A stretch of 64,000 nucleotides of DNA, taken from contig JAXHMZ010000005.1 of assembly GCA_034521025.1 (NCBI GenBank), positions 126,796 through 190,795 on the forward strand. The letters are read 5' to 3'. Position 1 is the stretch's first letter; every line of letters begins with the position of its first letter. Source of the DNA: Candidatus Campbellbacteria bacterium. Its GTDB lineage: Bacteria > Patescibacteriota > Minisyncoccia > Phycocordibacterales > JAXHMZ01. The notes under the pieces are model-generated. The model made no database searches and was not told the DNA's origin. It saw only the letters and a program-made list of their open reading frames with translations. A program made the translations under genes and the position numbers. Shown one piece after another: positions 7,942 through 56,559 of the stretch.

Positions 7942-9288
7942 CTAAAGCATAGCGCGTATCTGTGACAGTTCATTGTATATCTCGGAGTTATTCTTTAACT
8001 CCTCTCGCACTCTGTCACAGGAATGAATAACGGTTGTATGGTCTCGACCTCCCAACTTTTGTCCAATCAACGGAAAAGAAATTTTAAAATCCTCTCTTAA
8101 TATGAACATTATCATTTGCCTCGGTCGCACAACCTCCTTTTTCCGTGTTTTCTCAAAGATAACCTTTTCATCAATGTTATAGAATTCCGAAATCGTTTTT
8201 ATAACATCTTTGATAGCGATCTGTTTTCTCGGTTTAACCGAGGTCTTGGTTATGGATTGCAATTCGGAAATATCCAAGTCTCTACCCTTCATTTCCGCCT
8301 GCATAATGACGGTATTGAGTATACCTTCGAGATCTCTAACATTTCCCTCTACGGCAGAGGCAAGGTGTTCTACAGATTCTCGAGAAAGCGAAAAATTAGA
8401 ATGCTTTGCTTTGGCTGTGATTATCGCTACTCGAGAATCATGATCTGGAGGAGGAATGTCTACGATCATTCCCGCGCCAAAGCGCGACTTTAGACGCTCT
8501 TCAAGGTTTTGTATGTAGTTCGGATGTTTATCGCTGGAGAATACTATTTGCTTATTTGCGTCATAAAGGGCGTTGAAAAGGTGGAACAATTCTTCTTGAG
8601 TTTTGTCTTTGTTTGATAGGAATTGTATGTCGTCCATTATCAAGACATCGTAGTCTCTGTACTTTTCCTTGAATGCGTTTACACGATTGACCTGGATAGA
8701 GTTTAGAAAATCAACAGCAAACTTTTCACTGGTCAGGTAGTAACATTTCTTTCCCGAATAGAGCTCCTTCATCTTGTTACCGATCGCTTGTATCAAGTGA
8801 GTTTTGCCGTGCCCCGTGTTTCCGTATATAAAGAGTGGGTTGTATGTGGTGCCGGGTTTTTTAATAACCGCCTGAGCCGCGGCGTACGCCAGTTCATTGA
8901 AAGGACCAACCACAAAGGAATCAAAGTCGTACCGAGGATTCAGATTGTCCTCTTTGTTTATATAAACATCCTCAAACGGCAACTCCCCTCCCCTTGGCTG
9001 TTCGCGAAATGTTTTCTGCTTCTGTGTTCTTGCCGGCTTGCCTATTACATACTCTACGTTGCGAACTTCTCCAGCTCTGTCTCGTACCGCTTTAAGTATT
9101 GTTTTGTGATATTTGTTAAAGAGCCAGTCGCGGACAAATTGATTCGGTACAGAAATGTAGATTATTCCATCTTCGTGTTTTTGTATGTGGGTATCTTTAA
9201 ACCAAGTGTTAAACGTTGCGCTCGAAACAGATAGTTCTATCTCCACGAGCACGCTATCCCAGAGCTCTTTAATGTTCATAGCAGGCAA
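7942..9288 (-). CDS. dnaA: Chromosomal replication initiator DnaA.
   Basis: Walker A GNTGHGKTHL, an AAA+ core and a C-terminal DNA-binding domain (...IGQKLGGRDHTTVIHSCDRV...). Confidence 0.95.
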   Translation of the reverse strand: MPAMNIKELWDSVLVEIELSVSSATFNTWFKDTHIQKHEDGIIYISVPNQFVRDWLFNKYHKTILKAVRDRAGEVRNVEYVIGKPARTQKQKTFREQPRGGELPFEDVYINKEDNLNPRYDFDSFVVGPFNELAYAAAQAVIKKPGTTYNPLFIYGNTGHGKTHLIQAIGNKMKELYSGKKCYYLTSEKFAVDFLNSIQVNRVNAFKEKYRDYDVLIMDDIQFLSNKDKTQEELFHLFNALYDANKQIVFSSDKHPNYIQNLEERLKSRFGAGMIVDIPPPDHDSRVAIITAKAKHSNFSLSRESVEHLASAVEGNVRDLEGILNTVIMQAEMKGRDLDISELQSITKTSVKPRKQIAIKDVIKTISEFYNIDEKVIFEKTRKKEVVRPRQMIMFILREDFKISFPLIGQKLGGRDHTTVIHSCDRVREELKNNSEIYNELSQIRAML

Positions 9289-11348: not shown

Positions 11349-13232
11349 TTAACTCTCCCCGGTAATTGTCTCCCAGTAAGCTTGCAAAGGACACATAGTT
11401 TTATCTTTAATAAGGTCGAGGTTTTCCGGTGAAACATCAAGAAAGCCGGAGTTTGGGCAGCCGTTTTTAGTGGACCAGTTGTCGCTATCATTTTCCCCGA
11501 AGATGCACTTATCGTTCTCAAATGTCTCGAGGTGTAGATGTGGTTTAAATGTATCGCATGTTCCACCACCCGAATTGTATCCCGGATTATCTGACTTAAA
11601 GCCTATCGCATCTCCGGCTTCAATTGGATCACCCGTGGAGACGTCACCAAGTTCTATGTGAGTCAGGATCCACGCTCTGCCATTTTCATCCACAATTGCT
11701 ACTTTATCATTTGCCGTTCTCCCGCTCCCCTCCGCGTAACACCCAGTATCCATATTTCTCATAATTTGTACTTCGCCGCTAACTGGACTTGAAATTGTAC
11801 TAACATCATCCCTATTTGTTCTGATATCTATTCCGGCGTGGTACTTACCTTGACTCTCTATATATTCTTCGTCGTTATAGTATCCGCTTGTTTGGTAAGC
11901 CCTGGTGCCCATCTCGTTTGCGAATTGCTCAAAAAGCTCCTCGAGTTCTTTGCGCGCTTCTTCCCCTGCGCCTTCAAATGCAGGAATTGAATCAAGTGTT
12001 TCCGGGTTTGCGTCACAAAAAGCCTCATCCCACTCCGCATCACTTAAGTCCAATTCTTCGATCACAGGAAATGGACTCGTAGCCTCTTCTTCACAGGTTG
12101 CTTCGTCTGTTTCTGTTACACAATAGTAACTTCCAAATTCGGATGAGACGTTACTATAATCGAAAACAAGTCTTCCGCCCACATCAGAGCACTCTTCTGA
12201 GATAACCGCTTCCACTTCGTCCACATCTTCATCTTCAGAAAGAAGATAGCAGCCCCCTGGAGATTGGCTTTGGTCATTCAAACTATCAGCGGCAAATTCA
12301 ACGCTGTAATGTGCGTCATTGTCAAAACTATCTCCAGATATATCTTCGGTTATGTCCGCGTTACCACAGAACATTTGTCTTTGTTCGGTGGTTGATGGCC
12401 TTCGAAGCTCATCCTGGAAACATTGCTCGGGCGTACCAGGCTCAAACAGCTCGTCAGCAGCGGCTTCACATTCGCTCATATCAACAGTAAGTCGAAATGG
12501 TATTTCGTCCGTTGTACCGACCTGTACTTCGCCGCCGACAATTTGACATACGGAAGCGTCCCCCGGACCACGATAAAAGTCAATATATTCATCCTGTGTA
12601 AAATTAACGCCATCCCAATTACGCACTGAATCGGGGTGACTCCCCGGACACAACGGAAGATCGCTTACGTTATCAACGGGAATATTTGTTTCGGTATTGG
12701 TGATATCGCCAGTACAAAATGTATCAAAGTCCGGAGGGGGCTGTCCTTCTCCTGGCGGCGGATCAATCCACGGCAAATTACCAAAGTCAGAACTAACGGT
12801 AACAGTCCCCGCTCCCCCAATAAGGAAAAGAAGCACATAACTAGCCACAGCCAAAAGCAAACCAACCAAAGCCGCGGTGATAGTATCCTTGGCAGATCCC
12901 TTGGTAGTAACAGAGTCACTCGTCATATACTGTACACCACCAAATATCAACGCCACCACGGCAAACAAAATAGCCAAAGAAACACCAAGTCTGTACACGA
13001 TCTTCAGATATTCACCCAAAGGATTCTCACTATTTTCTACATCACCTGGCTCAAGACCGGGAAGAGGGGCGAGGAGGCTGTATCCCTCGTCTTCCTGCGC
13101 CAGCGCCGGTGTAGGAGAAGAAACTAGAGCGAACGCCGGAATAACAAGGAAAGCGAAAATAAAAATATAAGCAACGGTAGAACGTACGTATCTCATGTTT
13201 ATGCTTTGCCTCTTATAGTCCATCAACTTCAT
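11349..13232 (-). CDS. Large secreted protein: N-terminal VirB2/TrbC-like pilin domain (near-identical to ORF 14724..15209), a Cys-rich acidic middle region, and a C-terminal M23 (LytM-type) metallopeptidase domain.
   Basis: Signal peptide plus two hydrophobic helices shared with the 161-aa pilin-like paralog. M23 motifs YHAGIDI and PHLHLE near the C-terminus. Confidence 0.6.
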   Translation of the reverse strand: MKLMDYKRQSINMRYVRSTVAYIFIFAFLVIPAFALVSSPTPALAQEDEGYSLLAPLPGLEPGDVENSENPLGEYLKIVYRLGVSLAILFAVVALIFGGVQYMTSDSVTTKGSAKDTITAALVGLLLAVASYVLLFLIGGAGTVTVSSDFGNLPWIDPPPGEGQPPPDFDTFCTGDITNTETNIPVDNVSDLPLCPGSHPDSVRNWDGVNFTQDEYIDFYRGPGDASVCQIVGGEVQVGTTDEIPFRLTVDMSECEAAADELFEPGTPEQCFQDELRRPSTTEQRQMFCGNADITEDISGDSFDNDAHYSVEFAADSLNDQSQSPGGCYLLSEDEDVDEVEAVISEECSDVGGRLVFDYSNVSSEFGSYYCVTETDEATCEEEATSPFPVIEELDLSDAEWDEAFCDANPETLDSIPAFEGAGEEARKELEELFEQFANEMGTRAYQTSGYYNDEEYIESQGKYHAGIDIRTNRDDVSTISSPVSGEVQIMRNMDTGCYAEGSGRTANDKVAIVDENGRAWILTHIELGDVSTGDPIEAGDAIGFKSDNPGYNSGGGTCDTFKPHLHLETFENDKCIFGENDSDNWSTKNGCPNSGFLDVSPENLDLIKDKTMCPLQAYWETITGES

Positions 13233-14535
13233 CTACTCCGGGGATTATTAATTCCTCTGTCTGGTCCAAAGAAAACGCCCACAAACTCATATCTGCTTTA
13301 TTGTTAAATATCAAATATTCTTCGCTCTCAGATATGAATGGTTTATAAATATCAATGTTTTCACTGTCCGTCTCACTTGGAGAATAGATCTCTTGCGCGT
13401 TGCCCTCACTCGCGTCTATCTCAAATATAGAGTCCGAAAAAGAAGTCTGCCCCTTGTACCAAACGTCCGGATACATTCCCGATCCAATATCTTCCGGCAC
13501 TCCGCAGTAAGCCGTCTCGGTATCAGCCCACACGCACTTTTCTGGCAGTGTTTCTATGAAAAGATCGCGGGAATTTCCGGTTGCAGTGTTGTATATATGA
13601 ACACTTAGGTTGCTCCTTCCGCTGACCGAATAGAGAATGTAGCTCCCGTCGGGATTAGTGAGGGTGGTCAGTCCTTCCTCGTCGCCAATATTTCTTTCCA
13701 GCTGGCCGGTGGAGATAGGAAGGTCGTATGAATAACCATCGGTACGTCCACTGGCTTTTGTTGTCATATTGACTGTACCCGAAGAGAACCACTGCGGTAA
13801 CCACTCTGAGAATGATGATGAGAATACGGCGCTCTGGTTTGTACCATCAGGAGCGGAGACAATTCCCGTCGTTTTCGTAGGGGCGCTGTCAAGCCAAAAT
13901 ATTTCACTACCTTTCGGTGAGGAAACCAATTGTGGTATGTCGTCCTGCAAAAATTCTCCACTGAGCTCAAAAGGTGTTTCTCCGGCTTCTAGCTCACTCT
14001 CTTTTTCCACGAGCGCAGCCGTATAGGTTTTGATGGTCTGATTGTCTTCATCGAGATAGCGCAAAATTACACGATCGCCTCCGGAGGTCCAAATTGCTTC
14101 GTGTATTCTCGGTATTGTCGTACTAGATAGTCTTTCCTTCTCGAGAGACTCAAGATCAACGTCAAACACGTGAGACGATTCGCGCTCCAGTAGGCGTACA
14201 AATTCGTCTTTTGTTGTGTCTGTCTCTGTCTCATCGCTTGTGGGTGGCTCAGATCCTTTCAATACAGTAGTTGCCCCAGCTGTCGGCTCCTCGTGCACTA
14301 GTCGCAAGCGAGATTCGGGGTCAAACACCCCGGAGCCGCTTTCGCGGTCACTTTCCCTTTCGGGATTTGTTCCTTCTCTCGTTTCGCTTGTCTCTCCGAA
14401 GGTCGGTGGCTCGCCGTTTTCTTCGCCGCCTCCGTCATAAAAGAAAACGAAGTATATAGCGGCAATCGTAGCTATGATCAAAGCGATCACTCCGCTAATA
14501 ATAAGGATATTTTGTCGATTTTCTCCTTGGTCCAT
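13213..14535 (-). CDS. Membrane-anchored secreted protein with beta-propeller (PD40/TolB-like) repeats.
   Basis: N-terminal TM helix. Repeats such as DGSYILYSVSGRSNLSVHIYNTATG. Confidence 0.35.
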   Translation of the reverse strand: MDQGENRQNILIISGVIALIIATIAAIYFVFFYDGGGEENGEPPTFGETSETREGTNPERESDRESGSGVFDPESRLRLVHEEPTAGATTVLKGSEPPTSDETETDTTKDEFVRLLERESSHVFDVDLESLEKERLSSTTIPRIHEAIWTSGGDRVILRYLDEDNQTIKTYTAALVEKESELEAGETPFELSGEFLQDDIPQLVSSPKGSEIFWLDSAPTKTTGIVSAPDGTNQSAVFSSSFSEWLPQWFSSGTVNMTTKASGRTDGYSYDLPISTGQLERNIGDEEGLTTLTNPDGSYILYSVSGRSNLSVHIYNTATGNSRDLFIETLPEKCVWADTETAYCGVPEDIGSGMYPDVWYKGQTSFSDSIFEIDASEGNAQEIYSPSETDSENIDIYKPFISESEEYLIFNNKADMSLWAFSLDQTEELIIPGVDEVDGL

Positions 14536-14723
14536 ATGATGATTATATCAGATATAGAATATAAAAATGTTAAGTACAAGTGGATACGTTAGCCAATCTG
14601 TGCCCCTGTTACAGCAACCAAAAATGAAGCTGAATCCAGTGTCTCTACTTCTGAAATATTCGGAGAAGTTATACGCCTTATTCTTTAGCTTTCGAGGTGT
14701 ACTGTACTTCAGACATATAACAT

Positions 14724-15209
14724 CTATCTTCCGCCGCCACCTTCCGGCGGATCTTCGTCGTCAACTCTTACGGAGTCGTCGCTGTCTTCAGATTGAGGCG
14801 GCGGCTCAATCCACGGCAAACTCCCAAAGTCAGAACTAATAGTAACAGTCCCCGCTCCCCCAATGAGAAACAAAAGCACATAACTAGCCACAGCCAAAAG
14901 CAAACCAACCAAAGCCGCGGTGATAGTATCCTTGGCAGATCCCTTGGTAGTAACAGAGTCACTCGTCATATACTGTACACCACCAAATATCAACGCCACC
15001 ACGGCAAACAGAATAGCCAAAGAAACCCCAAGTCTGTACACGATCTTCAGATATTCACCCAAAGGATTGTCACTACTCTCTATGTCATCCACATCAAGAC
15101 CGGGGAGAGGGGCGAGGAGCACATATCCATCATCTCCTTGTGCCAATGCTGGCATTGGAGAAAAAAGTACAACGAACGCCAAGAACAAGGTCGCGAGTAA
15201 TTTTTTCAT
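14724..15209 (-). CDS. VirB2/TrbC-like pilin-type protein (signal peptide plus two TM helices).
   Basis: 161 aa with pilin-like topology. N-terminal about 120 aa are roughly 90% identical to the N-terminus of ORF 11349..13232. Confidence 0.5.
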   Translation of the reverse strand: MKKLLATLFLAFVVLFSPMPALAQGDDGYVLLAPLPGLDVDDIESSDNPLGEYLKIVYRLGVSLAILFAVVALIFGGVQYMTSDSVTTKGSAKDTITAALVGLLLAVASYVLLFLIGGAGTVTISSDFGSLPWIEPPPQSEDSDDSVRVDDEDPPEGGGGR

Positions 15210-15212
15210 ACA

Positions 15213-16265
15213 TTAAGGAGTAATTATTTCAACAGAGCCGTCGCCGGTTTGAAAAATATTGTCATTGTTGGTTACGTGTAGATCTATCTCTGAAGTTCCG
15301 CTTTGTTCGGAAACAAGCGGTAGTTCAGTATTGCCTGAAGTGGTTGTCTCTCTGACGCTCCTGCCGTTAAGCCGCCAGGTGTATTCAAGGGAGTCTTGAT
15401 TGCTAAAATAGTGTGGCTCGGCAACAACCGTAGAACTGCTTCCTTGTGCTAGATCAATACTCTCTGAGATTTCCCTTTCGTACTGAATACCGCCAAGGGG
15501 AGTTTTTCGATAGAAAAGAACCTCCGGCTCAGTTAGTCTGAACGAATCGGACGTAGACCATCTTGAGCCCGACTGTGGGTCCTCCACTTCTACCTCCGCG
15601 GAATGAGTTTTTCTCGTAAATCGTGCCAGTACCAAAATAGAGTTTTTACCGTAGCCGGAATCTGAAGCTCTTCGACCCCCGTCTTTGCTCCAGTTGTAAA
15701 TTAGGTTTTCTGCCGGCAACATTCCACTTTGGTTGCTTACTTGTGGTATTGCCACCATCCTAACTGCGGAATCCATGGTTGGCAGTGCCTTGCCTTTATA
15801 AAACGGATGAGTATATGAATCAACTACTTCCCACAAAAGATCTATGTTAGCGACAGAGAAAGTTATGGTTTGGGTTTCTTCTATCTCAGAGCCTCTGTTA
15901 ACTACGACTTTTACAGTATAGACGCTTCCCAGACCTCCTGCTTCAATGGATATCTGTTTCATACCGACCCCGCTTTCATATTCCTCACCATTGACTATCC
16001 AGGTGATGTTAGAGCTGTCCAAATAACTTCGGCCGTAATGATTCAACGATATCTGTACGGTCTCGCCCGGTTGCGGGCTACTAGTTATTGCTTGTATTCG
16101 TAGAGGCTGTTCAATAGTATCTTGTATTTCCTCCGTGCTTGGAAATTCCGGTGATAACCCCTCCAGGCCGCTTTGGGCAAACGAATCGGTCGGCACAGAT
16201 ACAAAGAGAACGCAAACAAAGGTTGCTATGATCGTTTGTATTTTATTGTTTGCGATGTATTTCAT
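15213..16265 (-). CDS. Secreted protein with Ig-like/Big-type beta domains.
   Basis: Signal peptide. Beta-rich repeats (QPGETVQISLN..., TVKVVVNRGSE...). Confidence 0.35.
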   Translation of the reverse strand: MKYIANNKIQTIIATFVCVLFVSVPTDSFAQSGLEGLSPEFPSTEEIQDTIEQPLRIQAITSSPQPGETVQISLNHYGRSYLDSSNITWIVNGEEYESGVGMKQISIEAGGLGSVYTVKVVVNRGSEIEETQTITFSVANIDLLWEVVDSYTHPFYKGKALPTMDSAVRMVAIPQVSNQSGMLPAENLIYNWSKDGGRRASDSGYGKNSILVLARFTRKTHSAEVEVEDPQSGSRWSTSDSFRLTEPEVLFYRKTPLGGIQYEREISESIDLAQGSSSTVVAEPHYFSNQDSLEYTWRLNGRSVRETTTSGNTELPLVSEQSGTSEIDLHVTNNDNIFQTGDGSVEIITP

Positions 16266-16276
16266 AAACCTCCCGT

Positions 16277-18089
16277 TTATTGATCAAGTTTGTTTTTTGC
16301 TTCTTTGATGGCGAGAATCTGCGCGGGGTCTGAGGTAATTATTTGCTCTTCTGTATACGAGGCGATTATTTTGATGGCAACATGCTTGAGTCCGGCAAAG
16401 AATATTCCCTCTCCCACATCACTCTCCAGCAAAAGATACTTTTCTTCGTCGGTCAGGTTAAAGACTTCTTGCACGTGATCGATCGAGGTGGGAGATTGCT
16501 TCAAGAGTAATTGAATAGAAGAGTTGGTCAAAATTGGCAGACCGTATTCGGAGTTCAAGAAGTCGTCCACGTCCTGGGTTATAGTAGCCACGCCCAAATA
16601 GTACTTGCGACCTCGCTTAACCATACTGTATAGGAATGAAGCAGTGTCTTCGGAGCGCATCATCCACCATGCCTCATCAACTACCAAAAGACGTTTCTTG
16701 AGCTCGAAACGCACAGCGTTCCAGATGAAGTGCGTTATAAGGTACATCGCCATTGGCTTTAATTCGTCTTCCATGTCGCGTATTGAGAACACGATCAACC
16801 TTTGGTCTATATCTACGTTTGTAGGCTGGTTGATAAATTCTGACCACGAACCTTTGGTGTACTTAGAGAGTCTTTGTACGAGAGATTCAGTGCCCTCCAT
16901 TCCGCTCAAGAACCATCTCAAAATCAGACATAAGCGGTGGATCAATGTTAGAAAAGTCGGAATCGGGCGTTATGTCTTTTAGAGCGTATGTTTCGGTAAT
17001 GGCACGGTCGATAATAGCATCTTCTTCCGGCGTTAATCCGCCGAACATAATTCGAAATAAGCCGACCAATTGGATCGTGTTCGACCTGAGCACGTCTGCG
17101 GGGTCCTCGTCTTCTCGTACATCGGGTAAATCAAAAGGATTTATGTGGTGCTCGGAATTTAGTGAAATATTAAAATATCGCCCGCCGATAGCCGTAGCTA
17201 GTTGCTCATATTCACGTTCCGGGTCTATAACTATAACTTCGGTATCGAACATCAGAGTACGAAGTATCTCTAGCTTGGTAGCAAAAGACTTGCCGGCGCC
17301 TGATTTCGCGAAAGAAACCGAGTTGTAGTTCTCGAGTGAAAAACGGTCAAACAAGACCAGCGAGGAATTGTGCCGATTTATGCCGTGGAGGATGCCTTTG
17401 TCTGATGTTAAGTCGAAAGAAATGAAAGGGAAAATACTAGAGAGCGGAGACGTGTTCAGCTTAGAATAAACGTTAAGCTTGTCAGTTCCGAAAGGGAATA
17501 CGCTCATCAGGCCCTGTTCCTGCTGGAATATAGCCGGCTTGATATAAACCAACTTTGCTTCCAGTATGGACCGGATCTCACTTTCGAGCTTATCCAGCTC
17601 GTTTTGGTCTTTTCCGAAAATGGATACATAAAGCCCCACATCGAATAGCTTTTCTTGCGCCTGCTGGAGATCGTCACGAAGACTTTCAAGGTCGGCGAGC
17701 GCTGTATCGAGCATTGGACTACGCACAAGCCCTTTTTGCATACGGGAATTTATCTGAGACTGAACTTCAGCCACCTTTTTTTGAAATTGTCTTAATACCC
17801 GCTCGGTTGAAATTGGATGAACAACAATTGAAATATCGACAATTTTGTCCATATTTATGATCGGAGCGAACCAGCCTTCAGACAGGTATCGCGGATAAGA
17901 GATGACAAAGAAAGTTCGCACCAGCTTGTCTCCCAAGTGGATATCCTTAGGCGTAACCTTTAGGGCCGAAGGAGCGATCACATCCTTTACTTCGAGAGCG
18001 CTGCCCGACGCCATCTCGCCCGGCAAGAGCGATTCGATCGCAGACATCTTGTTTTCTTCTTGATTGTTTTCTTTTCCGAAAAGAGCCAT
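16277..18089 (-). CDS. VirB4/TraC/TrbE-family conjugation/T4SS ATPase. Split by a frameshift in the 16887-16945 overlap; total about 610 aa.
   Basis: Walker A FAKSGAGKSFATKLE in ORF 16887..18089. Walker B LLVVDEAWWMM in ORF 16277..16945. The ORFs overlap by 59 nt in different frames. Confidence 0.8.
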
Positions 18090-18112
18090 ATTATATTTCT
18101 TTATTATATCAC

Positions 18113-18757
18113 CTACTCGCCTTCGGCGGTGTTGGTTGATTCTGTTGGGTTAAATAGCTTGTAATAAAGCTCTATCAATTCCTCCGAGCCCAGGCGCGCG
18201 GTCCGCACTCCGGTCCGCATAAGTCCCTGCTCTACTAATAGTAGGCGTTGTTCGAGTTGGCCTATTAGTTCATTTAAGTTTTCTTCCTTTTGCTCCTCCT
18301 TTTCTTTTTCGTTCTTCTTTTTTCCTCCGAACCCAAGAAAGCCCCCGCTAGATTTTTTGGTGGAAATGATAGCTCCTTGATAAGGAATAACCACAAAGAA
18401 GCTCTTTGACATAATATTAGTAGAATCCGTGAACTGTTTAATGAACTGCATATATTCACGAGTTTGCACCTTTAGAAGTTCGTTGGTTTGAACCGCCTCT
18501 CTTTCTTTGAGCAAGGAAAGATATGGACGTATATCCAGACGCCTGGATTGCACATAGATCTGGATCGGGAAATCAAGTGAGTTCAAAAGATTCTGGAACT
18601 GAAGAATGATCGCTCTTTGCTCGTCAGATCCCTTAAGAGCGAAGTTTATAGAAGAAGCCATAACCACAGCACGAAGCGATCCGTCGTTTAAAACGATCAT
18701 TCCGTTGCGAATTTCTTTTATGGGTACAAATTCTTGTGTTGCTTGTGCGTTTGCCAT
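18113..18757 (-). CDS. VirB4 N-terminal-domain-like protein. It could be the N-terminal portion of the VirB4 gene, ending in TAG 23 nt before the ATPase ORF.
   Basis: Pattern ...IVLNDGSLRAVVMASSINFALKGSDEQRAIILQFQNLLNSLDFPIQIYV... resembles the N-terminal domain of Gram-positive VirB4 proteins. Confidence 0.45.
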   Translation of the reverse strand: MANAQATQEFVPIKEIRNGMIVLNDGSLRAVVMASSINFALKGSDEQRAIILQFQNLLNSLDFPIQIYVQSRRLDIRPYLSLLKEREAVQTNELLKVQTREYMQFIKQFTDSTNIMSKSFFVVIPYQGAIISTKKSSGGFLGFGGKKKNEKEKEEQKEENLNELIGQLEQRLLLVEQGLMRTGVRTARLGSEELIELYYKLFNPTESTNTAEGE

Positions 18758-18758
18758 A

Positions 18759-19214
18759 TTATTCGTTGTCTTTAGCTTTTACTTTTTCTTCTACCTCCAA
18801 GTTCCACGAAATATCTTTTAGCTTACTCTCGGAGAGGTGAGGAACAGCGATAGGTTGGTAGGCGTCATTCACCTCTTCGTGTTCCTTAAGTGTTTTTTTC
18901 ATAGTTTTCCTGTCTTCCTTGCGCTTTTTCCATAGATATAGCTTGTTTTTTGTTATATACCGGAAGGCCGCTTCCAGGGTATAGACAAAGGGTTTTTTGT
19001 TGAACTTGTAGAAAGCGAGAGCCAGAGAAAGTCCGATCACAGGAGCTATAATGAACATTGCGAGATATAAAGGAAGCAGTTGATATATAAAGTAGGAAAT
19101 GCCTGCGCCCCCAATAACATAAATAAACTGCTTGAAGGAAAGCGGGCCGAATATCTTGTCTTCGATCTCAATAAATTGTGGGACCTGAAATCGCATATAG
19201 TTTAATGATAACAA
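18759..19214 (-). CDS. Small 2-TM membrane protein, VirB3-like by position and topology.
   Basis: 151 aa with two adjacent hydrophobic helices. Encoded immediately upstream of the VirB4-like genes. Confidence 0.4.
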   Translation of the reverse strand: MLSLNYMRFQVPQFIEIEDKIFGPLSFKQFIYVIGGAGISYFIYQLLPLYLAMFIIAPVIGLSLALAFYKFNKKPFVYTLEAAFRYITKNKLYLWKKRKEDRKTMKKTLKEHEEVNDAYQPIAVPHLSESKLKDISWNLEVEEKVKAKDNE

Positions 19215-19237
19215 ATATAGCTCTCACTTAATGTGCA

Positions 19238-19753
19238 CTATTCTTCGATCGGCTCTCTGTAAGGATCGTGCTTTGACCCCGGCCCTCGTTTTTCTCCCAA
19301 TATACTCCCAGCTACCGGATCTCCAGTCGGTCTTTCTTCGGTTTTCTCTTGCGAACTTCCTCCAACTTTTTCTTCTGAGGAATCGTCTTCTTGATCCAGT
19401 TTTTTATCTCCGCTCGACTGTGATTTTGGAGACGACAGCCCCTGAACTTCGTTAAACGAAGATCTTACCTTCGAGAAAACGTTTTGGTCTATTTTGGCTG
19501 TGATGTCGTTTGCCTTCTCAAGATTAATTCCAAGTTCGCTCTCAAGATTATAGGCGAATTCTTTAATGTCGGTCATTCCAAACAAAACCATAATTGTTTC
19601 GGCCTGTAGTGCACCGCTTTGTTCATCAGAAAAGCCTTCCTTTTCAACTATAGATTGGATAAAGGATTGAAATTCATCAGATATCGCTATCTCCTGGATA
19701 TCCTCAGGCATCTTTTTAAATTTTTCCGTTAATATTTGTTTTGGATCGTCCAT
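19238..19753 (-). CDS. Acidic hypothetical protein.
   Basis: ORF in an operon-like array on the - strand. Confidence 0.3.
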   Translation of the reverse strand: MDDPKQILTEKFKKMPEDIQEIAISDEFQSFIQSIVEKEGFSDEQSGALQAETIMVLFGMTDIKEFAYNLESELGINLEKANDITAKIDQNVFSKVRSSFNEVQGLSSPKSQSSGDKKLDQEDDSSEEKVGGSSQEKTEERPTGDPVAGSILGEKRGPGSKHDPYREPIEE

Positions 19754-19780
19754 AATTTAGTGAATTATATATGTTTAACC

Positions 19781-20629
19781 TTATTCCTCTTCATCTTCTT
19801 TGTCGCTTCCTTTATCTTCTTTCAGGTGCCCAGAAAGCTCTTCTAGAAGTTGTTCCGGCTTTGATTTCTTAAGATTCTTTCTGACTGCCGCCGCTCGTTT
19901 CTTGTCTATCCTTTCTTCTCCGGTGACGCCTGCACCCACCAAGGTGATTCGATTCCTAATATTTCTCTTTAGCCAATTTTGTTTTTCCAGTCTACGGGCA
20001 AACGCCTCCTGTCTTCTGGCGGTTATGTCTTTTCCGCCATACTCGCTTGCTTCTTTTCTTAGCTGCTGAGCACGCTTAAGCTTCTCTTCTCTTCGGCTTG
20101 CATATATCGTATTTTTAGACTCTTCTTCCGCCTGTTTTGCCTCTCTTAACATCCTCTGCTTCTCCCTTTCTATTTCTTTAGGGGTCGCCTGATATTGTTT
20201 CGAAGTCTCTACTGCCGCTTTCTCGGCCTCCTCTATTCCTTTTTGTACTCCTCCCTTGCCCGCGTTTTGGCTGACCCCTGCATTTTTCAATCCTTGCTTT
20301 TCGAGATTTTTTGTAGCTATCTTGCCTAGGGAAGTTGTTCTTGGGTCAAAGCTAGACTTTGAAAAACGATCAGCGGCTCCAAGAGCCATTCTAGCTGATA
20401 TACCCCGAGCTCCTCCCTCTTCGGCTCTGGCTTGAAGATTTGCGTTCTCTTTTAGTCTGCTGGCTTGAGTTCCAATTGTTCTTCTGCCGGCGAGAGCCAT
20501 TCCTCCGGTCGCGACTCCGAGGCTCATACCTAAGGCGGCTTTACCGGCGTTGTCTGCCATTTTACCAAACTTACCACTGAGGTTTTTGGTGATGTGCAAG
20601 GTCATGAACAGGCCAGCTATCACAAACAC
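19781..20629 (-). CDS. Membrane-anchored Lys/Glu-rich coiled-coil protein.
   Basis: N-terminal hydrophobic/Gly-rich segment followed by charged heptad-like repeats. Confidence 0.35.
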   Translation of the reverse strand: MFVIAGLFMTLHITKNLSGKFGKMADNAGKAALGMSLGVATGGMALAGRRTIGTQASRLKENANLQARAEEGGARGISARMALGAADRFSKSSFDPRTTSLGKIATKNLEKQGLKNAGVSQNAGKGGVQKGIEEAEKAAVETSKQYQATPKEIEREKQRMLREAKQAEEESKNTIYASRREEKLKRAQQLRKEASEYGGKDITARRQEAFARRLEKQNWLKRNIRNRITLVGAGVTGEERIDKKRAAAVRKNLKKSKPEQLLEELSGHLKEDKGSDKEDEEE

Positions 20630-20634
20630 ATAGA

Positions 20635-21648
20635 TTATGAAGAGAGTGACTCAGGGGTTTCGCCATTGCTTGTGTCACCAACTACGGGCACAAACTCTCG
20701 TACCTCTCCAGAAACTTCGACATCTGAGGTATCTATCGCGTTCTCCTCTCTGGCTTGGTAGGCAAAAGTTAGCACAACGAACACCAGGAAAAGAAAGACC
20801 GCGCCAAGTATTGTCCATTTGAAAAGCTCTTCGCGCCATTGCTGGGCGTACTTGCTGAGGATGGGAAGATTGGCTCCGGCGACACCTATAGGTGAAAGCA
20901 CAAAAATAAAGATAAGAGCAAACGTACGTGCCACAAAAAGAATAGCAGCAGAAAGGAAGATCCACATCGACATCAAAATGATTACTGTTTTGAGCAAATT
21001 AATACGCACTCCTTGCCAGCCGTTCTCTACCTGCTCCAGTCTAAAATCGTTGATTTTTTGGATTCCCAAAGCATTCATAAAGCGTTCACTAATCCCCACT
21101 TCATCGCGTGAATTTCCCTCGACGTCTTTACATTCATTACCATCGCCGCACTCTGTAATAGTAGTGTAAAAGCTTGAAGCCAGTATATTCCCCGCGTCTA
21201 CGACAACCTTTGTCAGGAAGAGACTAAAGTTGACCAAAAGTGCCGCGATGATAATGGCAGTGAGGTGTTTTTTCCAATTTATTGACTCAATGCGGAGTAT
21301 CGTACCGATCGCGACATAAAGAAGTATAAAAATGAACGAAATATTTATAATATCTCGGAGAAGAGTCCAAGCTATGTTAACGGAATCACTTTGATAGAGA
21401 TTGGTGGTAATAGAAAAGTCAATTGCTTTGTCAAGCACTGCTCCGATCAAGTATAAAAGCAAAGATAGAATCCCATTAATGGCCGACAAAAGTGTGGAAA
21501 CCATCGTACCGGAGCAGTCTTTGAAGTCTCTGACGAGATTGCATCCATGCGCTACCTCAGCGCCAACTGGGCCGAATGCGAGAAAAAGCACAAGAAATGG
21601 AAATAGTCCGTAAGTGAATATCTTTTTAAAAGCTGGTCGTTTCATCAT
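20635..21648 (-). CDS. Polytopic membrane protein, VirB6/TrbL-like.
   Basis: 337 aa with at least 6 predicted TM helices. Located within the VirB3/VirB4-like cluster. Confidence 0.45.
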   Translation of the reverse strand: MMKRPAFKKIFTYGLFPFLVLFLAFGPVGAEVAHGCNLVRDFKDCSGTMVSTLLSAINGILSLLLYLIGAVLDKAIDFSITTNLYQSDSVNIAWTLLRDIINISFIFILLYVAIGTILRIESINWKKHLTAIIIAALLVNFSLFLTKVVVDAGNILASSFYTTITECGDGNECKDVEGNSRDEVGISERFMNALGIQKINDFRLEQVENGWQGVRINLLKTVIILMSMWIFLSAAILFVARTFALIFIFVLSPIGVAGANLPILSKYAQQWREELFKWTILGAVFLFLVFVVLTFAYQAREENAIDTSDVEVSGEVREFVPVVGDTSNGETPESLSS

Positions 21649-21649
21649 A

Positions 21650-22318
21650 GGGGCAAATCCCGCGCGCGTTAAAGCGAAACCTTCGTTTCATTATAGCAAA
21701 ACAAAAGCCCGATTTTATCGAGCCCCTGTTGAAAAGTATATTGTTATATTTATTCTTTTGACGAGCTGTGAGTGTCCGTATTATTACTTAATCGATGCCT
21801 CCTATGACTTCCGCTTAACTTCTCCTTCGTACCTTCTTCTTCAAATAGTTAACTTCTCGCTTCTCCTTCTTCTAGTCACCGAATCGAATTTCAGCTCACG
21901 GCTTCGTTCAACCTACAGTTCTCAAATACAGTGTCTACATCTTCTCTCCGGTAAGTCCAGTTCTGTCTGCAATTGCTTCTCGAAACGAGTGCTGTCACTT
22001 GCGAACATCGCTCCGTCTCCTCTGCAATGTGGTCGTCTGACACTTGACTTCTAGTCTTATCAGATTCTTGCATCTTCGAACTTCCTGCTCTTCTTGCTTG
22101 TTCTCACTTTCTTGTATGCCTTCCCTCGCATCCTCTTCGGCTTCTTTTTGTTTTTCCTCTATCTCCTTTTCCTTTCCTAATCTCCTCACATCCTTTGAGT
22201 TTTCGCTACGCGTAGGCATACTTATTCCGTTCTCGTATTATGTCTTGACAAAGCATTCTCTACTCATGGAGCAATCATTGTTTCAAGAAATTCGTCTCCT
22301 TGGTCTTTGAATATATCA
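21650..22318 (-). other. Strand-biased, pyrimidine-rich (+ strand) segment with no intact long ORF. Possibly a decayed gene for a charged protein.
   Basis: CT-rich on + and AG-rich on -. Only short - strand ORFs (21995..22219 and 21891..22073), both encoding E/K/R-rich peptides. Confidence 0.3.
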
Positions 22319-23178
22319 CTACATATATGTACAACTCCAGAGGTCAGATCGCTGGCAATAGCAGAAGGGCTTACACGTTCGCGCTGCAAACATTCTCCTG
22401 TATTGCGGATCATATCTAGCGCATTTGCCTATATTCTGTGCACCCTCGCCTGTGGCTATCTCTCTCTCTTTGTTTTCAAATGCTCGTTGTCGTTGCGCGA
22501 GAGATTCTTCGATCAAGGTTATGCGGGTGCATTCATAGTTACTCGCGCAGTTTTGCGTTACCTCGAGGAACGCTCCCCAGCCACCTTCGGTAAAGTCATT
22601 GTTAAACGCTTGGCGTTGCTCGTCTGTGATATTGGTTTGAAATTCTTCTTCAAAATTAGCCCAAAAATCTTTCTGCGCGGATTGGGCTTCTCTCGCGAGC
22701 TCTCGTGCTAACGTTTCCTTGAACCCTTCCGGCAACTGATCATTCCCTACTTGTGTTTTAAAAGTTTCAGTGAAAATTGCCGCTTCTCTGGAGATCAAGT
22801 TTCTAAACGCTTCTTCGGGATTTTCAATATACTCAAAAGCGCTTTGTACTTCTGCATGTCTTTAAAAGTAACGTTATTAACCTTTCCTGTTCTCATCTCT
22901 CTACACTTCCACGTGGTTACTTTTACTGCACTGTTTATGAAATCATAAGTTCTTCTTTGTTTGGCAATATTTGCCCATACCGCATCTAAACGTTCAGCGT
23001 TGTCAAGCACATACTCTTTTACTTGCTGCACTACATCTAGCACAACAAACTGGGCAGCCGCCTCGTTTGGCTTAAAAGAAAAAGTTACTGTAAATACACA
23101 CAAAACTACCAAGAATAGTACGGCAACTTTTCCAAAAAAACCTTTTCGTGTATGACTGTTTAGTTTCGGGAATTTCAT
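22319..23178 (-). CDS. Secreted hypothetical protein encoded by two ORFs with a TTGA overlap (22795..23178 and 22319..22798). Either one frameshifted gene or two coupled genes.
   Basis: Signal peptide in the upstream ORF. The downstream frame stays open for about 20 codons into the upstream ORF. Confidence 0.35.
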
Positions 23179-23189
23179 ATTTTACTACT

Positions 23190-24240
23190 TTATCTCGAAT
23201 CCGTGTTGGTAATTACGTATCCCGGTTCGTTTGCTGAAAAAGTGACGTTGTTGTTGTTAAAATAACTCACTAAGCCGGAGTTACCTTCAGCTATGGACAC
23301 ATATCCTTTCTGATATCGCACTAAGCCTATCAGACTCTTAAGTGGGTCGGCGTCGAAATCGTCACGAATTGATTTAAGGGTGGTTGCTAAGTGGTGAGTA
23401 CCGTTGATTATTTGCAAGTGGTACTCAGCAGCTCCTTGTGGTACGTTCTCGATCGAGAGCAATTCAGCGGTGGCGGTTTCGTATGTGGAAATAATTTCAT
23501 TTAAAGCAGAGGTATTTTCGTTCTCTACTGCTTCTTGTACTGAACTATGTTCCTCCTCAATACTAATATTGGTATATGACCCAGCGATCACTCCTAGGAC
23601 GTTTCCATAAGTTCTTATATCGGCTTTGCTAGATGTTTTCATGGTAGAAATATCGGAGGCGTCGTATCTTTCTGGAATTGATTCTATGTCTCCTATGGAG
23701 TTTTGTACGTATTTTTGTGTCAACTCAGATAAAAGTGCGTCTATGGAAGAATCGTTAAAGTTACCGCTCGCGCTCAACTCATTAAGTCCTTGGAAATAAT
23801 CTCTATAAAAAGCTTCCGTGGTGGTCAGACCCTCATTGCTTTCGCGGAAAAACGTAGGAGTGTCGTTCGTGCTTAACTCGTCATTTGGTCCGGGCACTCG
23901 CGGATCGCGACCTGTCTCTACTTCTTCACCGTCCGGTGTTCCATCTCCGTCTGTGTCGGGGTTTTCGGGGTCAGTGCGCCACATCACTTCTTCCCAGTCG
24001 CGCAAGCCGTCACTGTCTCTGTCTGTCTCAAATTGCTCCGCGGTCGTACTTACAGACACCCCTCCGTCGGTTACGGCGACGGGCTCTTCTTCGGATTTCG
24101 TTTTCATTAAATCTTGTAAAGTAAAGCGTCGCGCCCACGGCAAGGATCGCTATAAGCACGACAAGGATACGCAAACTAAGGTTTTTGTCTTCATTCATAA
24201 TTAGTGCTTTTAGTATATAACCCAATATTTGGTATGCCAA
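23190..24240 (-). CDS. Membrane-anchored protein with Asp-rich calcium-binding (thrombospondin-type-3-like) repeats. The TM anchor sits in a different frame (24028..24240), so a frameshift is likely.
   Basis: DTDGDGTPDGEEVETGRDPRVPG motif. The hydrophobic N-terminus lies in the overlapping ORF. Confidence 0.4.
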
Positions 24241-25857
24241 TTAACGATTGTGGATAGCTTTTGTTTTTCTAGAAGTATTCAAAAAGGCCAATAAGGATAT
24301 GGAAAGAAAAGCTATTAAGAACGGCGACGTACCGAGTCGACTGAATATCGTTAGGTAGGAAAATACAGGAACGTCAGCATACATAATTGATTCTCTTTCT
24401 TGTTCATTTGTCTTACTGAGCACTTCACCTTTATTGTTTACTATAAAGGTCGGTGCCACGTTTCCGGCTTGGATAAAGTATCTTCCGTTTTCCACGGCAC
24501 GCACCTTTGATTGTTTTGTGGTTTGATTTACCAGAAGTGGATAGTATCCAAATAGGCTATGAGAAGAACTGTTCACAAGAACTCCCGATCCTGAGGTGGC
24601 TAGTTGTCGATATAGCTCCGGCGAATACACTTCTGAGCAGAAAAGCGCACCCACCTCAGCGCCATTGACTGAAAAAGTTGATACATCACTTCCCCTCTCA
24701 GCTATGTTGTGACCTCGGTATGATTCTCCCGATTCTTCATCAAGAAAAATATTCATCAAGGGAAGCATAATTGTGGGAGTATACTCGCCGAAAGGAGTCA
24801 GCAGTATTTTCTTGTAGATCTCTTCTTCTTTGTTTTCACTGATTATTCTAAAGCGCACAATAGTTTGATTGGAAGGTCTGAAGCCGTATGAATCCAAAAC
24901 CTTTGGTAGCGCTCCGCTTTCTTTAAAATTAGCAAAAAAACGTTTCTTCTCCGGCGGGACAAATCTGTTAAAGTACGCTGCCCCCTCTGGAAGTATTATC
25001 AGTTCCGGAGACCTGCTGTCTCTTTCAAACATGTCTATCACTTGGCGCTGTGACATATACGCTTCAACTTGATCACTTATACCCACTTCCGTATCGGTCT
25101 TTATGTTACTTTGAACGGCCGCTATAGAAAGACTAACCTCGGATTCTTTCTCCTGGGCAAACAAAACCAAGCCGCTTATTACCAAAAAAAGTGCAAAGAA
25201 AAAAGCAGTTAATGTTCTAAATCGAAATATATAGAGGAAGATCAAAAGATTGAATACGACAAGCGTAAACGACAACAGATGTATGCCCCCGACTGACGCA
25301 AGAGAAAGCAAAGGAGGAAACTCGGCAAGAATATATCCAATATGACCAAAGGTCCATTGTCCTCCGATATATGATCCATTGCCGTAGCTCAGTACGGAAA
25401 AAATGAAAGCTCCCAGCCACTCTGCAAAACTCCAGCTAGCGGCCAAGCCGAGAGTTGTTAAAGAGTTTAGGTTTTGAATAAATACCTTCGCTACTATTCC
25501 CCACAACCCAACGGCTGATGAAAAGATGGCGGTAGTTATGAACCAGATTAGTGAAACCAGGAATAACGATAGAGGGTAGTTTTCTACCCCCATCCAATTC
25601 AGAGGTAGCGTTTCAAAGAAAAATGAGAATATAGCACCAAAGTGTGTGAAACCAACCAAGAAACTCCACGCAAACGCTTCGCGACTGTTTTGCGAGTTTT
25701 TCAGTACCAAAAGGAGTGGAACAAGCGCTATGAACCCCAATAACCAAAGCAAGGGTATGTTAAAGGAAAGGAAGAGCAGGGAACCCGAGAGGAGTGAGAG
25801 TAATAGCTTATGCGTTCTTTTCATACAACAAGTGTAGCAGTTTCTGCCAAGTTTCAA
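24241..25857 (-). CDS. lnt: Apolipoprotein N-acyltransferase (polytopic N-domain plus CN-hydrolase domain).
   Basis: Multi-TM N-terminal half. C-terminal nitrilase-type domain (...LIILPEGAAYF..., ...ALFCSEVYSPE...). Confidence 0.65.
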   Translation of the reverse strand: MKLGRNCYTCCMKRTHKLLLSLLSGSLLFLSFNIPLLWLLGFIALVPLLLVLKNSQNSREAFAWSFLVGFTHFGAIFSFFFETLPLNWMGVENYPLSLFLVSLIWFITTAIFSSAVGLWGIVAKVFIQNLNSLTTLGLAASWSFAEWLGAFIFSVLSYGNGSYIGGQWTFGHIGYILAEFPPLLSLASVGGIHLLSFTLVVFNLLIFLYIFRFRTLTAFFFALFLVISGLVLFAQEKESEVSLSIAAVQSNIKTDTEVGISDQVEAYMSQRQVIDMFERDSRSPELIILPEGAAYFNRFVPPEKKRFFANFKESGALPKVLDSYGFRPSNQTIVRFRIISENKEEEIYKKILLTPFGEYTPTIMLPLMNIFLDEESGESYRGHNIAERGSDVSTFSVNGAEVGALFCSEVYSPELYRQLATSGSGVLVNSSSHSLFGYYPLLVNQTTKQSKVRAVENGRYFIQAGNVAPTFIVNNKGEVLSKTNEQERESIMYADVPVFSYLTIFSRLGTSPFLIAFLSISLLAFLNTSRKTKAIHNR

Positions 25858-54682: not shown

Positions 54683-54785
54683 TTGACAGAAAAAGTATTT
54701 CAATGTAAAAGCAAGATAGATTGGTCTCATAGGGAGACCATCAACACCTAGAGGCCAAATGTGGCCCGGATCCAAGGAGGATCAA
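54683..54785 (+). promoter_or_regulatory. Promoter (TTGACA-17nt-TAAAAG) plus a leader with two hairpins and an RBS. A paralogous leader lies at 60424..60526.
   Basis: Hairpins GGTCTC-ATAGG-GAGACC and GGCCA-AATG-TGGCC. The second shows compensatory changes in the paralog (GGTCA-AATG-TGACC). Confidence 0.5.
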
Positions 54786-55303: not shown

Positions 55304-55332
55304 GTAGTTATCCCCAGTGAACTTCATGTTCA

Positions 55333-55925: not shown

Positions 55926-55955
55926 TTGGGGATTTATATTATAATTAAAGTGTAT

Positions 55956-56471: not shown

Positions 56472-56559
56472 AGAGGGCTTGAGCGAAGTCTAAGTACAGT
56501 TAATCCTCAGTGAACTTTATGTTCATTGGGGATTTATATTATAATTAAAGTGTATATGA

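Follow-up and report, generated by a model that had tools for sequence, protein, structure and literature searches.

A VirB2-like pilin joined to an M23 peptidase in the chromosomal type IV secretion locus of a Candidatus Campbellbacteria bacterium

The pilin-M23 fusion and its pilin partner

We analysed a stretch of 64,000 nucleotides (hereafter the window; contig JAXHMZ010000005.1, positions 126,796 to 190,795, assembly GCA_034521025.1) from a Candidatus Campbellbacteria bacterium. At 11349-24240 it carries a type IV secretion system (T4SS) locus, and the last gene of this locus joins a VirB2-like pilin to a Cys-rich region and an M23 peptidase. All genes of the locus lie on the - strand, flanked by ksgA on one side and by jag/yidC/rnpA/dnaA on the other, and the order of transcription is p317, gene X, VirB6, p171, PrgI/VirB3, TrsD, VirB4, p350, pilin, p440 and fusion. 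The genes named in a preliminary description, made from the sequence alone, are present and co-directional at these coordinates. The source organism is a bacterium of the Candidate Phyla Radiation (CPR)/Patescibacteria, Paceibacteria group, and the fusion protein of the window is, from residue 13 onward, identical to an NCBI protein from a Candidatus Campbellbacteria metagenome-assembled genome. The fusion gene, its parts and the stand-alone pilin gene are the following.

11349-13232, - strand: fusion protein, 627 amino acids (aa); T4SS_pilin match at residues 85-134 and Peptidase_M23 match at residues 464-575
13098-13232, - strand: fusion residues 1-45, Sec-type signal peptide ending in PALA before Q; hydrophobic segment 19-37, cleavage site the same as in the pilin
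12753-13097, - strand: fusion residues 46-160, VirB2-like pilin module (T4SS_pilin E = 4.6e-4), a copy of the stand-alone pilin
11898-12752, - strand: fusion residues 161-445, Pro-rich (PPP) linker and Cys-rich extracytoplasmic region (alignments A1, A2)
11352-11897, - strand: fusion residues 446-627, M23 (LytM/lysostaphin-type) zinc endopeptidase with a complete catalytic set; C-terminal motif TMCPLQAYW, specific to the fusion family
14724-15209, - strand: stand-alone VirB2-like T4SS pilin, 161 aa (T4SS_pilin E = 8.3e-5, TrbC 0.0086)

The stand-alone pilin has a Sec signal peptide (PALA before Q), transmembrane (TM) helices at 60-78 and 98-116, a Lys-containing loop and a short acidic/Gly tail. 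In the pilin module of the fusion, hydrophobic helices at residues 82-100 and 120-138 are linked by TSDSVTTKGSAKDT, a K-rich loop. With this loop inside, both ends of the module would face outward, as in the VirB2/TraA pilins. Profile searches supported the proposed VirB2 assignment in part. Against T4SS_pilin both proteins scored below the Pfam cut-off of 26.6 bits (23.0 for the stand-alone pilin and 20.6 for the fusion), and the stand-alone pilin gave a weak match to the Mbov_0395 pilin-like family of NCBIfam. By phmmer, however, both are homologous (best E 1e-29) to a family that matches PF18895 in 104 of its 116 long members.

The Cys-rich region of the fusion contains eight invariant Cys residues and the invariant motifs W-D..C and QTSGYY. 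The eight Cys are consistent with a disulfide-bonded extracytoplasmic domain, and no Pfam, PDB-profile or fold match was obtained for this region outside the M23 part. The M23 catalytic residues (H465-AGI-D469, H525 and H565-L-H567) are conserved in the fusion family, and the Peptidase_M23 score of 27.5 bits falls just short of the Pfam cut-off of 28.7. A profile of the family matched solved M23 peptidases of the PDB at E = 3e-8 to 1e-5 with the catalytic motifs aligned. Foldseek with the model of the M23 part returned LytM and lysostaphin (probability 1.0), StM23 and PrgK-LytM (8s0u). Both in sequence and in fold the fusion has the defining features of peptidase family M23, and from these data its M23 domain looks like a catalytically competent endopeptidase. 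Pfam scans detected no SLT domain in any protein of the locus, and the fusion is not a member of the VirB1 family; it could be a functional analogue of VirB1. Outside the T4SS locus (29805-30830, + strand) lies another M23 peptidase, of conventional type and with two LysM domains (Peptidase_M23 101 bits), so the genome holds a housekeeping M23 enzyme besides the pilin-tethered one.

For comparison we used 80 related loci, found with the central VirB4 piece as the query in a scan in which each species was represented by one genome. All of them are from Patescibacteria, mostly Paceibacteria, and their gene order is ksgA-p317-(gene X)-VirB6-(p171)-PrgI-TrsD-VirB4-p350-pilin(s)-p440, convergent with jag/yidC. 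The M23 part is absent from all 80 of these species-representative loci, and the fusion is therefore confined to a small subclade. Four full-length homologues, each built of the same three parts as the window protein (P0002-P0005, E = 2e-75 to 5e-45), came from an exhaustive phmmer search, and a profile search added a fifth (P0151). A word-indexed search recovered nothing beyond the query when given the whole fusion, and three proteins when given the C-terminal profile. Six other sequences (L081, L082, L083/L084, L085, L086 and L087) end the locus with the fusion gene, which immediately follows the p440 orthologue and is convergent with jag/yidC-rnpA-dnaA-dnaN. Wherever the contigs of these relatives extend far enough, an intact T4SS lies upstream of it. 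The proposed pilin-Cys-rich-M23 gene has therefore held up, with the position shared by six other sequences and the M23 catalytic residues intact, and an assembly chimera is ruled out by the architecture and position that these sequences share. We conclude that what is new here is this gene, in which a copy of the pilin of the locus continues into an M23 peptidase, and that it is genuine and conserved but narrowly distributed.

The pilin module of the fusion closely resembles the pilin encoded beside it. A 300-nt direct repeat, 93% identical, connects the fusion gene (12754-13053) and the stand-alone pilin gene (14797-15096). Over the 69-aa core (TM1-loop-TM2) the two proteins of the window are 100% identical. 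Their genes differ there at six nucleotides, each time synonymously, and agree fully over the central 135 nt. The identity of this core between the fusion and the co-resident pilin is also 100% in L086, 90% in L083, 88% in L085 and 80-93% in L082, where the pilin is frame-broken. Across genomes, on the other hand, the pilin cores are 36-55% identical, with the exception of the close pair L085/L086 (83-84%). The C-terminal parts of the fusions are 32-44% identical across genomes and stand in the same position; they are clearly orthologous but old. Old C-terminal orthologues next to cores that are near-identical within each genome indicate that the pilin modules have been homogenised repeatedly, genome by genome. 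In three further loci of Paceibacteria where pilin modules occur in two genes, the modules are likewise close (69-92% identical), and the C-terminal parts are unrelated.

Extensions of the pilin module are common among the relatives. The ORF (open reading frame) at the pilin position in the 80 loci has a median length of 326 aa (range 160-575), typically far longer than a bare pilin. Among 42 aligned proteins from this position (the window pilin and 41 proteins from related loci) there were one NlpC/P60 domain (L078, 575 aa), one SLT domain and one weak CHAP match. In the 116 cluster representatives that are long and nearest to the pilin of the window, the wall-active Pfam matches, counted per family so that they can overlap within one protein, included NlpC/P60 in five, SLT in four (plus SLT_3 in one), VanY, M23 and YkuD in four each, Peptidase_M15_4 in three, Amidase_5 in two and 3D in one. 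The co-resident pilin of L085 (7640-9688) is a protein of 682 aa in which a right-handed beta-helix (Pel9A-like/Beta_helix) comes after the pilin module and forms a cargo that resembles polysaccharide lyases of the pectate-lyase type. An ORF of 682 aa at the pilin position of L087 (5638-7686) was checked for its pilin module and its length. Tandem pilin modules, at least two in a single polypeptide, were seen in L032 (13864-15285), P0135 (1046 aa, seven matched stretches), P0009 and P0056. Our search of a literature library found no published description of pilin-hydrolase cargo fusions. The wider pattern, in which pilin modules with cell-envelope-active cargo co-evolve with the resident pilin, has apparently not been described before.

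Core genes, accessory proteins and chromosomal setting

The remaining genes of the locus are listed in the order of transcription.

23190-24240, - strand: p317, secreted and TM-anchored, with a Ca-binding repeat of TSP3 type (TSP3_bac E = 0.0029); first conserved gene of the locus
21650-23178, - strand: gene X, conserved secreted protein; in relatives an ORF between p317 (or ksgA) and VirB6
19781-21648, - strand: VirB6/TrbL-like polytopic membrane protein, assigned by orthology; 5-6 hydrophobic helices and a charged C-terminal tail
19238-19753, - strand: p171, small acidic protein conserved in part of the clade
18759-19214, - strand: PrgI/VirB3-like protein with a hydrophobic hairpin (Pfam PrgI 40.4 bits, cut-off 27, E = 4.4e-10)
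18113-18757, - strand: TrsD-like protein, 214 aa, homologous to the N-terminal domain of VirB4 and encoded by its own gene
16277-18089, - strand: VirB4 ATPase (Pfam P-loop_TraG, TraC_F_IV, DUF87; NCBIfam conju_CD1110)
15213-16265, - strand: p350, signal-anchored extracytoplasmic protein with three beta-rich repeats of ~100 aa (W..NG motif)
13213-14535, - strand: p440, beta-propeller behind an N-terminal TM helix and an acidic linker; its stop overlaps the fusion start by 20 nt

The best NCBIfam match of VirB4 is conju_CD1110, of which the two pieces in the window cover positions 182-554 (243 bits) and 560-733 (129 bits) out of 752. VirB4 is 72-89% identical to its counterparts in the 80 species-level loci and 82-90% identical to those of L083 and L087. 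The 214-aa ORF upstream scores 19 bits with CD1110 (positions 2-118), and it also matches VirB4_plasma (positions 101-233) and TrsD (E = 3.8e-4) of NCBIfam. It aligns to the N-terminal ~120-180 positions of the VirB4 models, its orthologues are annotated as Pfam PF26593 TraC-like, and its profile gave no match in the PDB. In 76 of 76 relatives this ORF is separate and ends at a stop of its own. The ATPase had been described as lying in 2-3 pieces; the 214-aa piece is a TrsD gene, and the remaining split, into 400 and 222 aa, is a 1-nt frameshift that is absent from 79 of 79 relatives, where VirB4 is uninterrupted.

PrgI was found at the same position in 71 of the 80 loci, and the PrgI family is the VirB3 equivalent of monoderm T4SSs. 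The VirB6 fragment of the window gave no Pfam match alone. Its residues 1-339 are 54% identical to the 678-aa orthologue of L001 (56% in alignment A8), and VirB6 is a single ORF of 599-999 aa in the relatives. The TrbL/VirB6 Pfam match appeared in 7 of 25 aligned sequences (24 orthologues and the window fragment; best E = 1.1e-6), accompanied by weak NCBIfam matches to Mbov_0396 and CD3337/EF1877; the VirB6 profile gave chance matches only in the PDB. Orthology thus assigns this gene to VirB6, and the proposed VirB3 and VirB4 identities are borne out by the PrgI score and by the matches to the VirB4 families. The acidic protein p171 has no Pfam match and no predicted TM segment; tblastn located it at the same position in 18 of the 80 loci, and also in L083 and L087.

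Secreted proteins with Ig-like, propeller and Ca-binding domains had been reported as interleaved with the core genes. The propeller and the TSP3 repeat are clear, and the Ig-like matches are weak. For p440, an AlphaFold2 (AF2) model built from an alignment of database homologues reached a predicted local distance difference test (pLDDT) score of 90.3 and a predicted TM-score of 0.84; fold search led to propellers at E about 1e-9, and the TolB profile matched at E = 0.0016. It is present in 50 of the 80 loci, always as the last gene before yidC/jag unless the fusion comes after it. Some homologues match PD40, and four (P0170, P0188, P0195 and P0220) carry PG_binding_1 (PF01471), which suggests that p440, a conserved T4SS accessory protein, may contact peptidoglycan. 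The p317 protein also matches the TSP3 regions of CglD/MtsD in NCBIfam, and its orthologues, found in 33 of the 80 loci, have an N-terminal TM helix followed by DxDxDGLKDWEE. In 66 of the 80 loci p350 is present, always immediately downstream of virB4, with invariant W89, W192 and W297 spaced by about 100 aa; it matches BiPBP_C of Pfam weakly, and its Ig-like PDB matches are non-significant. Gene X measures 325-616 aa in relatives. The ORF from five relatives matches the window at 22406-22846, and the 473-aa gene X product of L083 matches the window only via residues 93-233.

The locus is chromosomal and lies close to the replication origin. One flank contains trpS/tyrS, PBP1a, dnaN, dnaA (7942-9288), rnpA, yidC and jag, and the opposite flank contains lnt, ksgA, a methyltransferase gene and pcrA/uvrD. 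The composition profile of the window showed no compositional island at the locus, and a promoter/terminator scan of the locus gave the same counts as shuffled sequence. An Lnt (apolipoprotein N-acyltransferase) homologue at 24241-25857 (- strand) stands immediately upstream of the locus, an adjacency seen in one of the 80 related loci (L063). Scanning of the ORFs of at least 110 aa across the 64-kb window revealed no VirD4/TcpA, VirB11 or relaxase domain, in agreement with what had been read from the sequence; apart from the T4SS locus, these ORFs are housekeeping genes or have no match. A tyrosine recombinase of 253 aa with a Phage_integrase domain (36004-36765, + strand) lies 12 kb off the locus amid housekeeping genes, and it is probably a XerC/D-like enzyme unlinked to the T4SS.

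Other features of the window are as follows. PBP1a (class A penicillin-binding protein with transglycosylase and transpeptidase; 3901-6334, + strand) is split into 394 and 389 aa. A tandem array of about four paralogous genes of ~180 aa occupies 54750-57150 (+ strand), whose products have an N-terminal TM/signal segment and conserved Cys (motif ...VCALEREENAELLERIDNATESNFGSFYDAWLGLYDRECD...). At 58577-59122, 61808-62185 and 62315-62971 (+ strand) lie genes for proteins that are predicted to be secreted and in which long (Pro-Glu/Asp)n runs precede Cys-containing domains. The two longest of these proteins look paralogous, and the sole Pfam match in the group is the low-complexity PARP repeat. 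The local GC content climbs to about 0.50 around these genes.

Possible role of the fusion and state of the locus

The reading that we consider probable is that the locus encodes a Patescibacteria-type T4SS or pilus that handles the fusion as one of its pilins, and so places the M23 enzyme where the pilus crosses the cell wall. By homology, TrsD and VirB4 would act as the ATPase, PrgI/VirB3 and VirB6 would form the membrane platform, and the Sec-exported VirB2-like pilin would be the filament subunit, its polymerisation into a filament being predicted. The Ig-like p350, the propeller p440 and the Ca-binding p317 would complete the locus as conserved extracytoplasmic accessories. The fusion would be a lineage-specific accessory subunit. 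With the N-terminus out, the Lys loop in and the C-terminus out, its module would display the enzyme outside the membrane. As this module is indistinguishable from the major pilin, the fusion is expected to pass for a pilin: the T4SS would draw it out of the membrane pool to the VirB3/VirB4/VirB6 platform, where it would probably be co-polymerised as a minor subunit among the 161-aa pilins. The cross-link-cutting M23 endopeptidase would thereby sit at the point where the pilus traverses the wall. It might cut the producer's own wall, a role like that of VirB1 or PrgK, and/or the wall of the host bacterium that carries the epibiont.

Several points weigh against this proposal. Own wall and host wall are both live options for the target. 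Co-polymerisation of a subunit with an extension of ~470 aa is suggested by the sequence homogenisation only, and neutral gene conversion between nearby repeats could yield such homogenisation without selection. A pilus made of Patescibacteria VirB2-like proteins is considered a possibility in reviews, and none has yet been demonstrated. Most relatives have no recognisable hydrolase in the locus, and the enzyme is thus not a core requirement. In two members of the fusion family the second His of HxH is replaced by Asp. Structure prediction succeeded for the M23 part, which matches LytM folds, and not for the whole protein: the AF2 model of the full-length fusion (six sequences) was poor, with a pLDDT of 52.5 (25-74 in the Cys-rich part), and only its M23 part is usable. 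Finally, four or five genes of the locus are frame-broken as sequenced, and the machine may be inactive in this genome.

It is possible, although we think it rather unlikely, that the fusion is instead a membrane-anchored autolysin of the VirB1/PrgK type, which opens the thin wall of the producer for assembly of the T4SS. Its pilin module would then be a mere two-helix anchor, and the identity with the pilin would be a neutral by-product of gene conversion between repeats 2 kb apart. Monoderm T4SSs do use TM-anchored multidomain hydrolases such as PrgK (LytM, SLT and CHAP), whose LytM domain is among the fold matches of the fusion, and the M23, SLT, NlpC/P60 and CHAP cargos on pilins are the types found in Gram-positive VirB1 equivalents. 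The identical central 135 nt of the two window copies are also what is expected of a recent conversion tract. However, homogenisation recurs in five genomes whose fusions are otherwise 32-44% identical, which is easier to understand if the match matters. Moreover, YkuD, VanY and the pectate-lyase-like beta-helix are not hole-punching cargos, and most relatives build the same locus without any hydrolase. We lean towards display on the filament, which is favoured by the repeated homogenisation with the major pilin and by the variety of the cargos, including a polysaccharide-lyase-like beta-helix, an L,D-transpeptidase fold and a D,D-carboxypeptidase fold.

A bolder form of the display idea, which we put forward only tentatively, is that in this clade of Paceibacteria the T4SS filament is a modular enzyme-display pilus. 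A single pilin module, whose uniformity in each genome would be maintained by gene conversion or selection, would carry interchangeable C-terminal cargos (M23, NlpC/P60, SLT, CHAP, VanY/M15, YkuD and the pectate-lyase-like beta-helix) and would drill through the capsule and the peptidoglycan of the host. If this is true, mixed filaments would be the route by which CPR epibionts gain access to host resources.

The frame breaks raise the question of whether the locus of this genome is decaying. The gene list drawn up earlier is correct as to the genes present, but it overlooked breaks in VirB6, gene X and the TSP3 protein, and the locus is not intact as sequenced. The two pieces of VirB4, the longer with Walker A and the shorter with Walker B, are separated by one extra base near 16905 (CTT-G-AGC). 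At this junction the window has GTT CTT G AGC GGA ATG, and L001, the nearest locus of the genome collection, reads V-L-S-G-M. A frameshift at about 20640 (context CTCTCTTC) divides VirB6 into pieces of 337 and 282 aa. Gene X lies in ORFs of 127, 159 and possibly 74 aa, so that at least two frame changes are present; the three-frame view places its signal/TM N-terminus and its conserved GGW..TQN core in different frames. The TM helix of p317 is on a separate 70-aa ORF in frame 2 (24028-24240), the remainder being in frame 0, with the break at about 24090. Reading of UGA as Gly was ruled out as the cause of these splits, as they are frame changes and not in-frame stops, and TGA, TAA and TAG each terminate well-supported genes of the window.

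That the frameshifts are real, and that a decaying pseudogene cluster leaves no working apparatus and no role for the fusion, appears improbable to us. In favour of decay are the concentration of at least five breaks within 13 kb, in genes that every relative examined has in intact form, the intact look (length and Pfam coverage) of the housekeeping genes over about 27 kb at 27-54 kb, and the virB4 insertion, which is not within a homopolymer. However, enrichment of breaks in the T4SS as a sign of pseudogenisation is weakened by broken genes elsewhere. PBP1a is likewise interrupted by a one-base frame change in a T run at about 5051 (ATATTTC context), the gene being a single ORF of 807-839 aa in L082 and L083. 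In the paralog array, the copy at 55926-56471 alone is in one frame, and the others are broken into 2-3 ORFs. The stand-alone pilin of L082, on a Joint Genome Institute metagenome contig (565-1010), is split into ORFs of 60 and 78 aa, and frame breaks in such loci are therefore not unique to the assembly of the window. This pattern is typical of indel-prone assemblies.

Nor is there an excess of amino-acid change past the virB4 break: the nonsynonymous divergence (dN) from L001 is equal on either side (0.085 vs 0.088). The lineage of the window is no more diverged than L001 from 55-79 outgroups, which argues against an acceleration of the rate. The fusion, p440, p350, the pilin, PrgI and TrsD are all intact in the window. 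Equal dN, the lack of acceleration and the broken PBP1a and paralog array together indicate that the breaks are artefactual or very recent, and most likely they are assembly indels or very recent lesions rather than long-standing decay. An exact-pattern scan of metagenome contigs yielded no unbroken virB4 allele. With its many frame breaks, the assembly of the window should not be cited in support of 'split VirB4' biology.

That the locus is or was a module for DNA transfer, either an integrated conjugative element or what is left of one, with the relaxase and coupling protein outside the window, is highly improbable. In its favour, VirB4 is of the conjugative CD1110/MPF_FATA lineage, a tyrosine recombinase gene lies 12 kb off, and homologues of the type IV coupling protein (T4CP) exist elsewhere in many Patescibacteria genomes, usually distant from virB4 (PMC12102498). 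Against it, the same chromosomal slot (ksgA to yidC/dnaA) with vertically conserved synteny is occupied in 80 species-level genomes, the locus forms no compositional island and is separated from the recombinase by housekeeping genes, and relaxases occur in only 103 Patescibacteria genomes, rarely near virB4 (PMC12102498).

Few systems have been shown to be indispensable to CPR bacteria as epibionts. The T4SS is one of them, and its cargo and its passage through two walls are puzzling. To this our data add a small syntenic family in which the pilin of the locus is joined to an intact M23 endopeptidase, and related pilin modules that repeatedly bear wall- or glycan-active domains and are near-identical to the co-resident pilin. 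Together these two findings lead to the testable idea that the pilus or its assembly site is a delivery vehicle for wall-degrading enzymes.

Comparison with known secretion systems and wall hydrolases

The cluster as a whole is already known, as the same kind of locus was published in 2023 and 2025. The T4SS of Patescibacteria comprises an MPF_FATA-related VirB4, TrsD, PrgI, VirB6 and PF18895/VirB2-like pilins (Quinonero-Coronel et al. 2025, PMC12102498), and TrsD is the most abundant component of the published repertoire (PMC12102498). In Paceibacteria it adjoins dnaA, dnaN, ksgA and rnpA (PMC12102498). The homologous T4SS of Southlakia epibionticum (SEML1_0006-0019) is essential for epibiotic growth (Wang et al. 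2023, PMC10633639), and a 2025 review treats the Patescibacteria systems as new members of the T4SS superfamily that possibly build pili. The window shares with these chromosomal systems (PMC10633639, PMC12102498) the VirB4, the separate TrsD, PrgI/VirB3, VirB6 and the PF18895-type pilins, and likewise a CPR bacterium as the source, a place near dnaA/dnaN/ksgA/rnpA and a cluster without relaxase or T4CP. Every testable defining feature of a Patescibacteria/MPF_FATA-derived T4SS was found in the locus. As it matches the published systems gene for gene (PMC12102498), the proposal of a non-conjugative apparatus of a CPR bacterium is well founded. The absence of a coupling protein, however, applies to the window, and T4CP homologues of Patescibacteria usually lie at a distance from virB4 (PMC12102498).

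The locus of the window differs from the published ones in three respects. Published pilin arrays, those of other classes, consist of 2-11 genes with a mean identity of 25% and a maximum of 54% (PMC12102498), whereas the window has just two pilin-module genes, whose cores are identical. The second of these adds the Cys-rich region and M23, an architecture that is not in those papers; the 2025 survey does describe some VirB1 homologues with extra M23 or LysM domains (PMC12102498). Several genes of the window are, in addition, frame-broken in the assembly.

With the MPF_FATA systems (pCF10 Prg/Pcf, CTn2 CD1110, pGO1 Trs and the Mycoplasma integrative and conjugative element proteins Mbov_0395-0397) the locus shares the VirB4 lineage, CD1110 being the best match, and the PrgI and TrsD families. 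It also shows weak matches to the pilin-like and TM proteins of the Mycoplasma element, and it has no outer-membrane core complex. In contrast to the conjugative MPF_FATA systems, the window has no relaxase, no coupling protein and no PrgB-type adhesin, and the locus occupies a fixed chromosomal position; most MPF_FATA systems, moreover, lack the VirB2-type pilins that it has. With neither relaxase nor T4CP within the 64 kb, and with no complete conjugative module adjacent, the locus does not have the makings of a conjugative element. Judged by its gene families, the system is derived from monoderm MPF_FATA conjugation machinery whose DNA-processing functions have been lost.

Like PrgK (pCF10), TraG (pIP501) and CwlT (ICEBs1), the fusion would be a membrane-tethered extracytoplasmic wall hydrolase in a monoderm T4SS locus. 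For an M23-type domain in a hydrolase of a monoderm T4SS, PrgK provides a precedent with its LytM/M23-fold domain (PDB 8s0u); it is the pilin tether that is unusual. In PrgK the LytM domain is degenerate and metal-free, and the active domain is an SLT-like muramidase (PMC11323569). The fusion, by comparison, has intact M23 catalytic residues and no SLT or CHAP domain, and it is anchored by a complete VirB2-like pilin hairpin that follows a cleavable signal peptide, not by a single N-terminal TM helix.

The HxxxD and HxH residues and the fold are shared with the LytM/lysostaphin M23 endopeptidases. Unlike these, the fusion has neither SH3b nor LysM, and carries the Cys-rich domain, which is particular to its family, and the C-terminal TMCPLQAYW instead. 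A conceptual parallel exists in VgrG-3 of the Vibrio cholerae type VI secretion system, an 'evolved' structural subunit with a peptidoglycan-hydrolase extension. There, too, the enzyme travels on a subunit of the spike or polymer. The machine and the fold are unrelated, so that this is an analogy only, in which incorporation of the M23 fusion into the filament is presumed.

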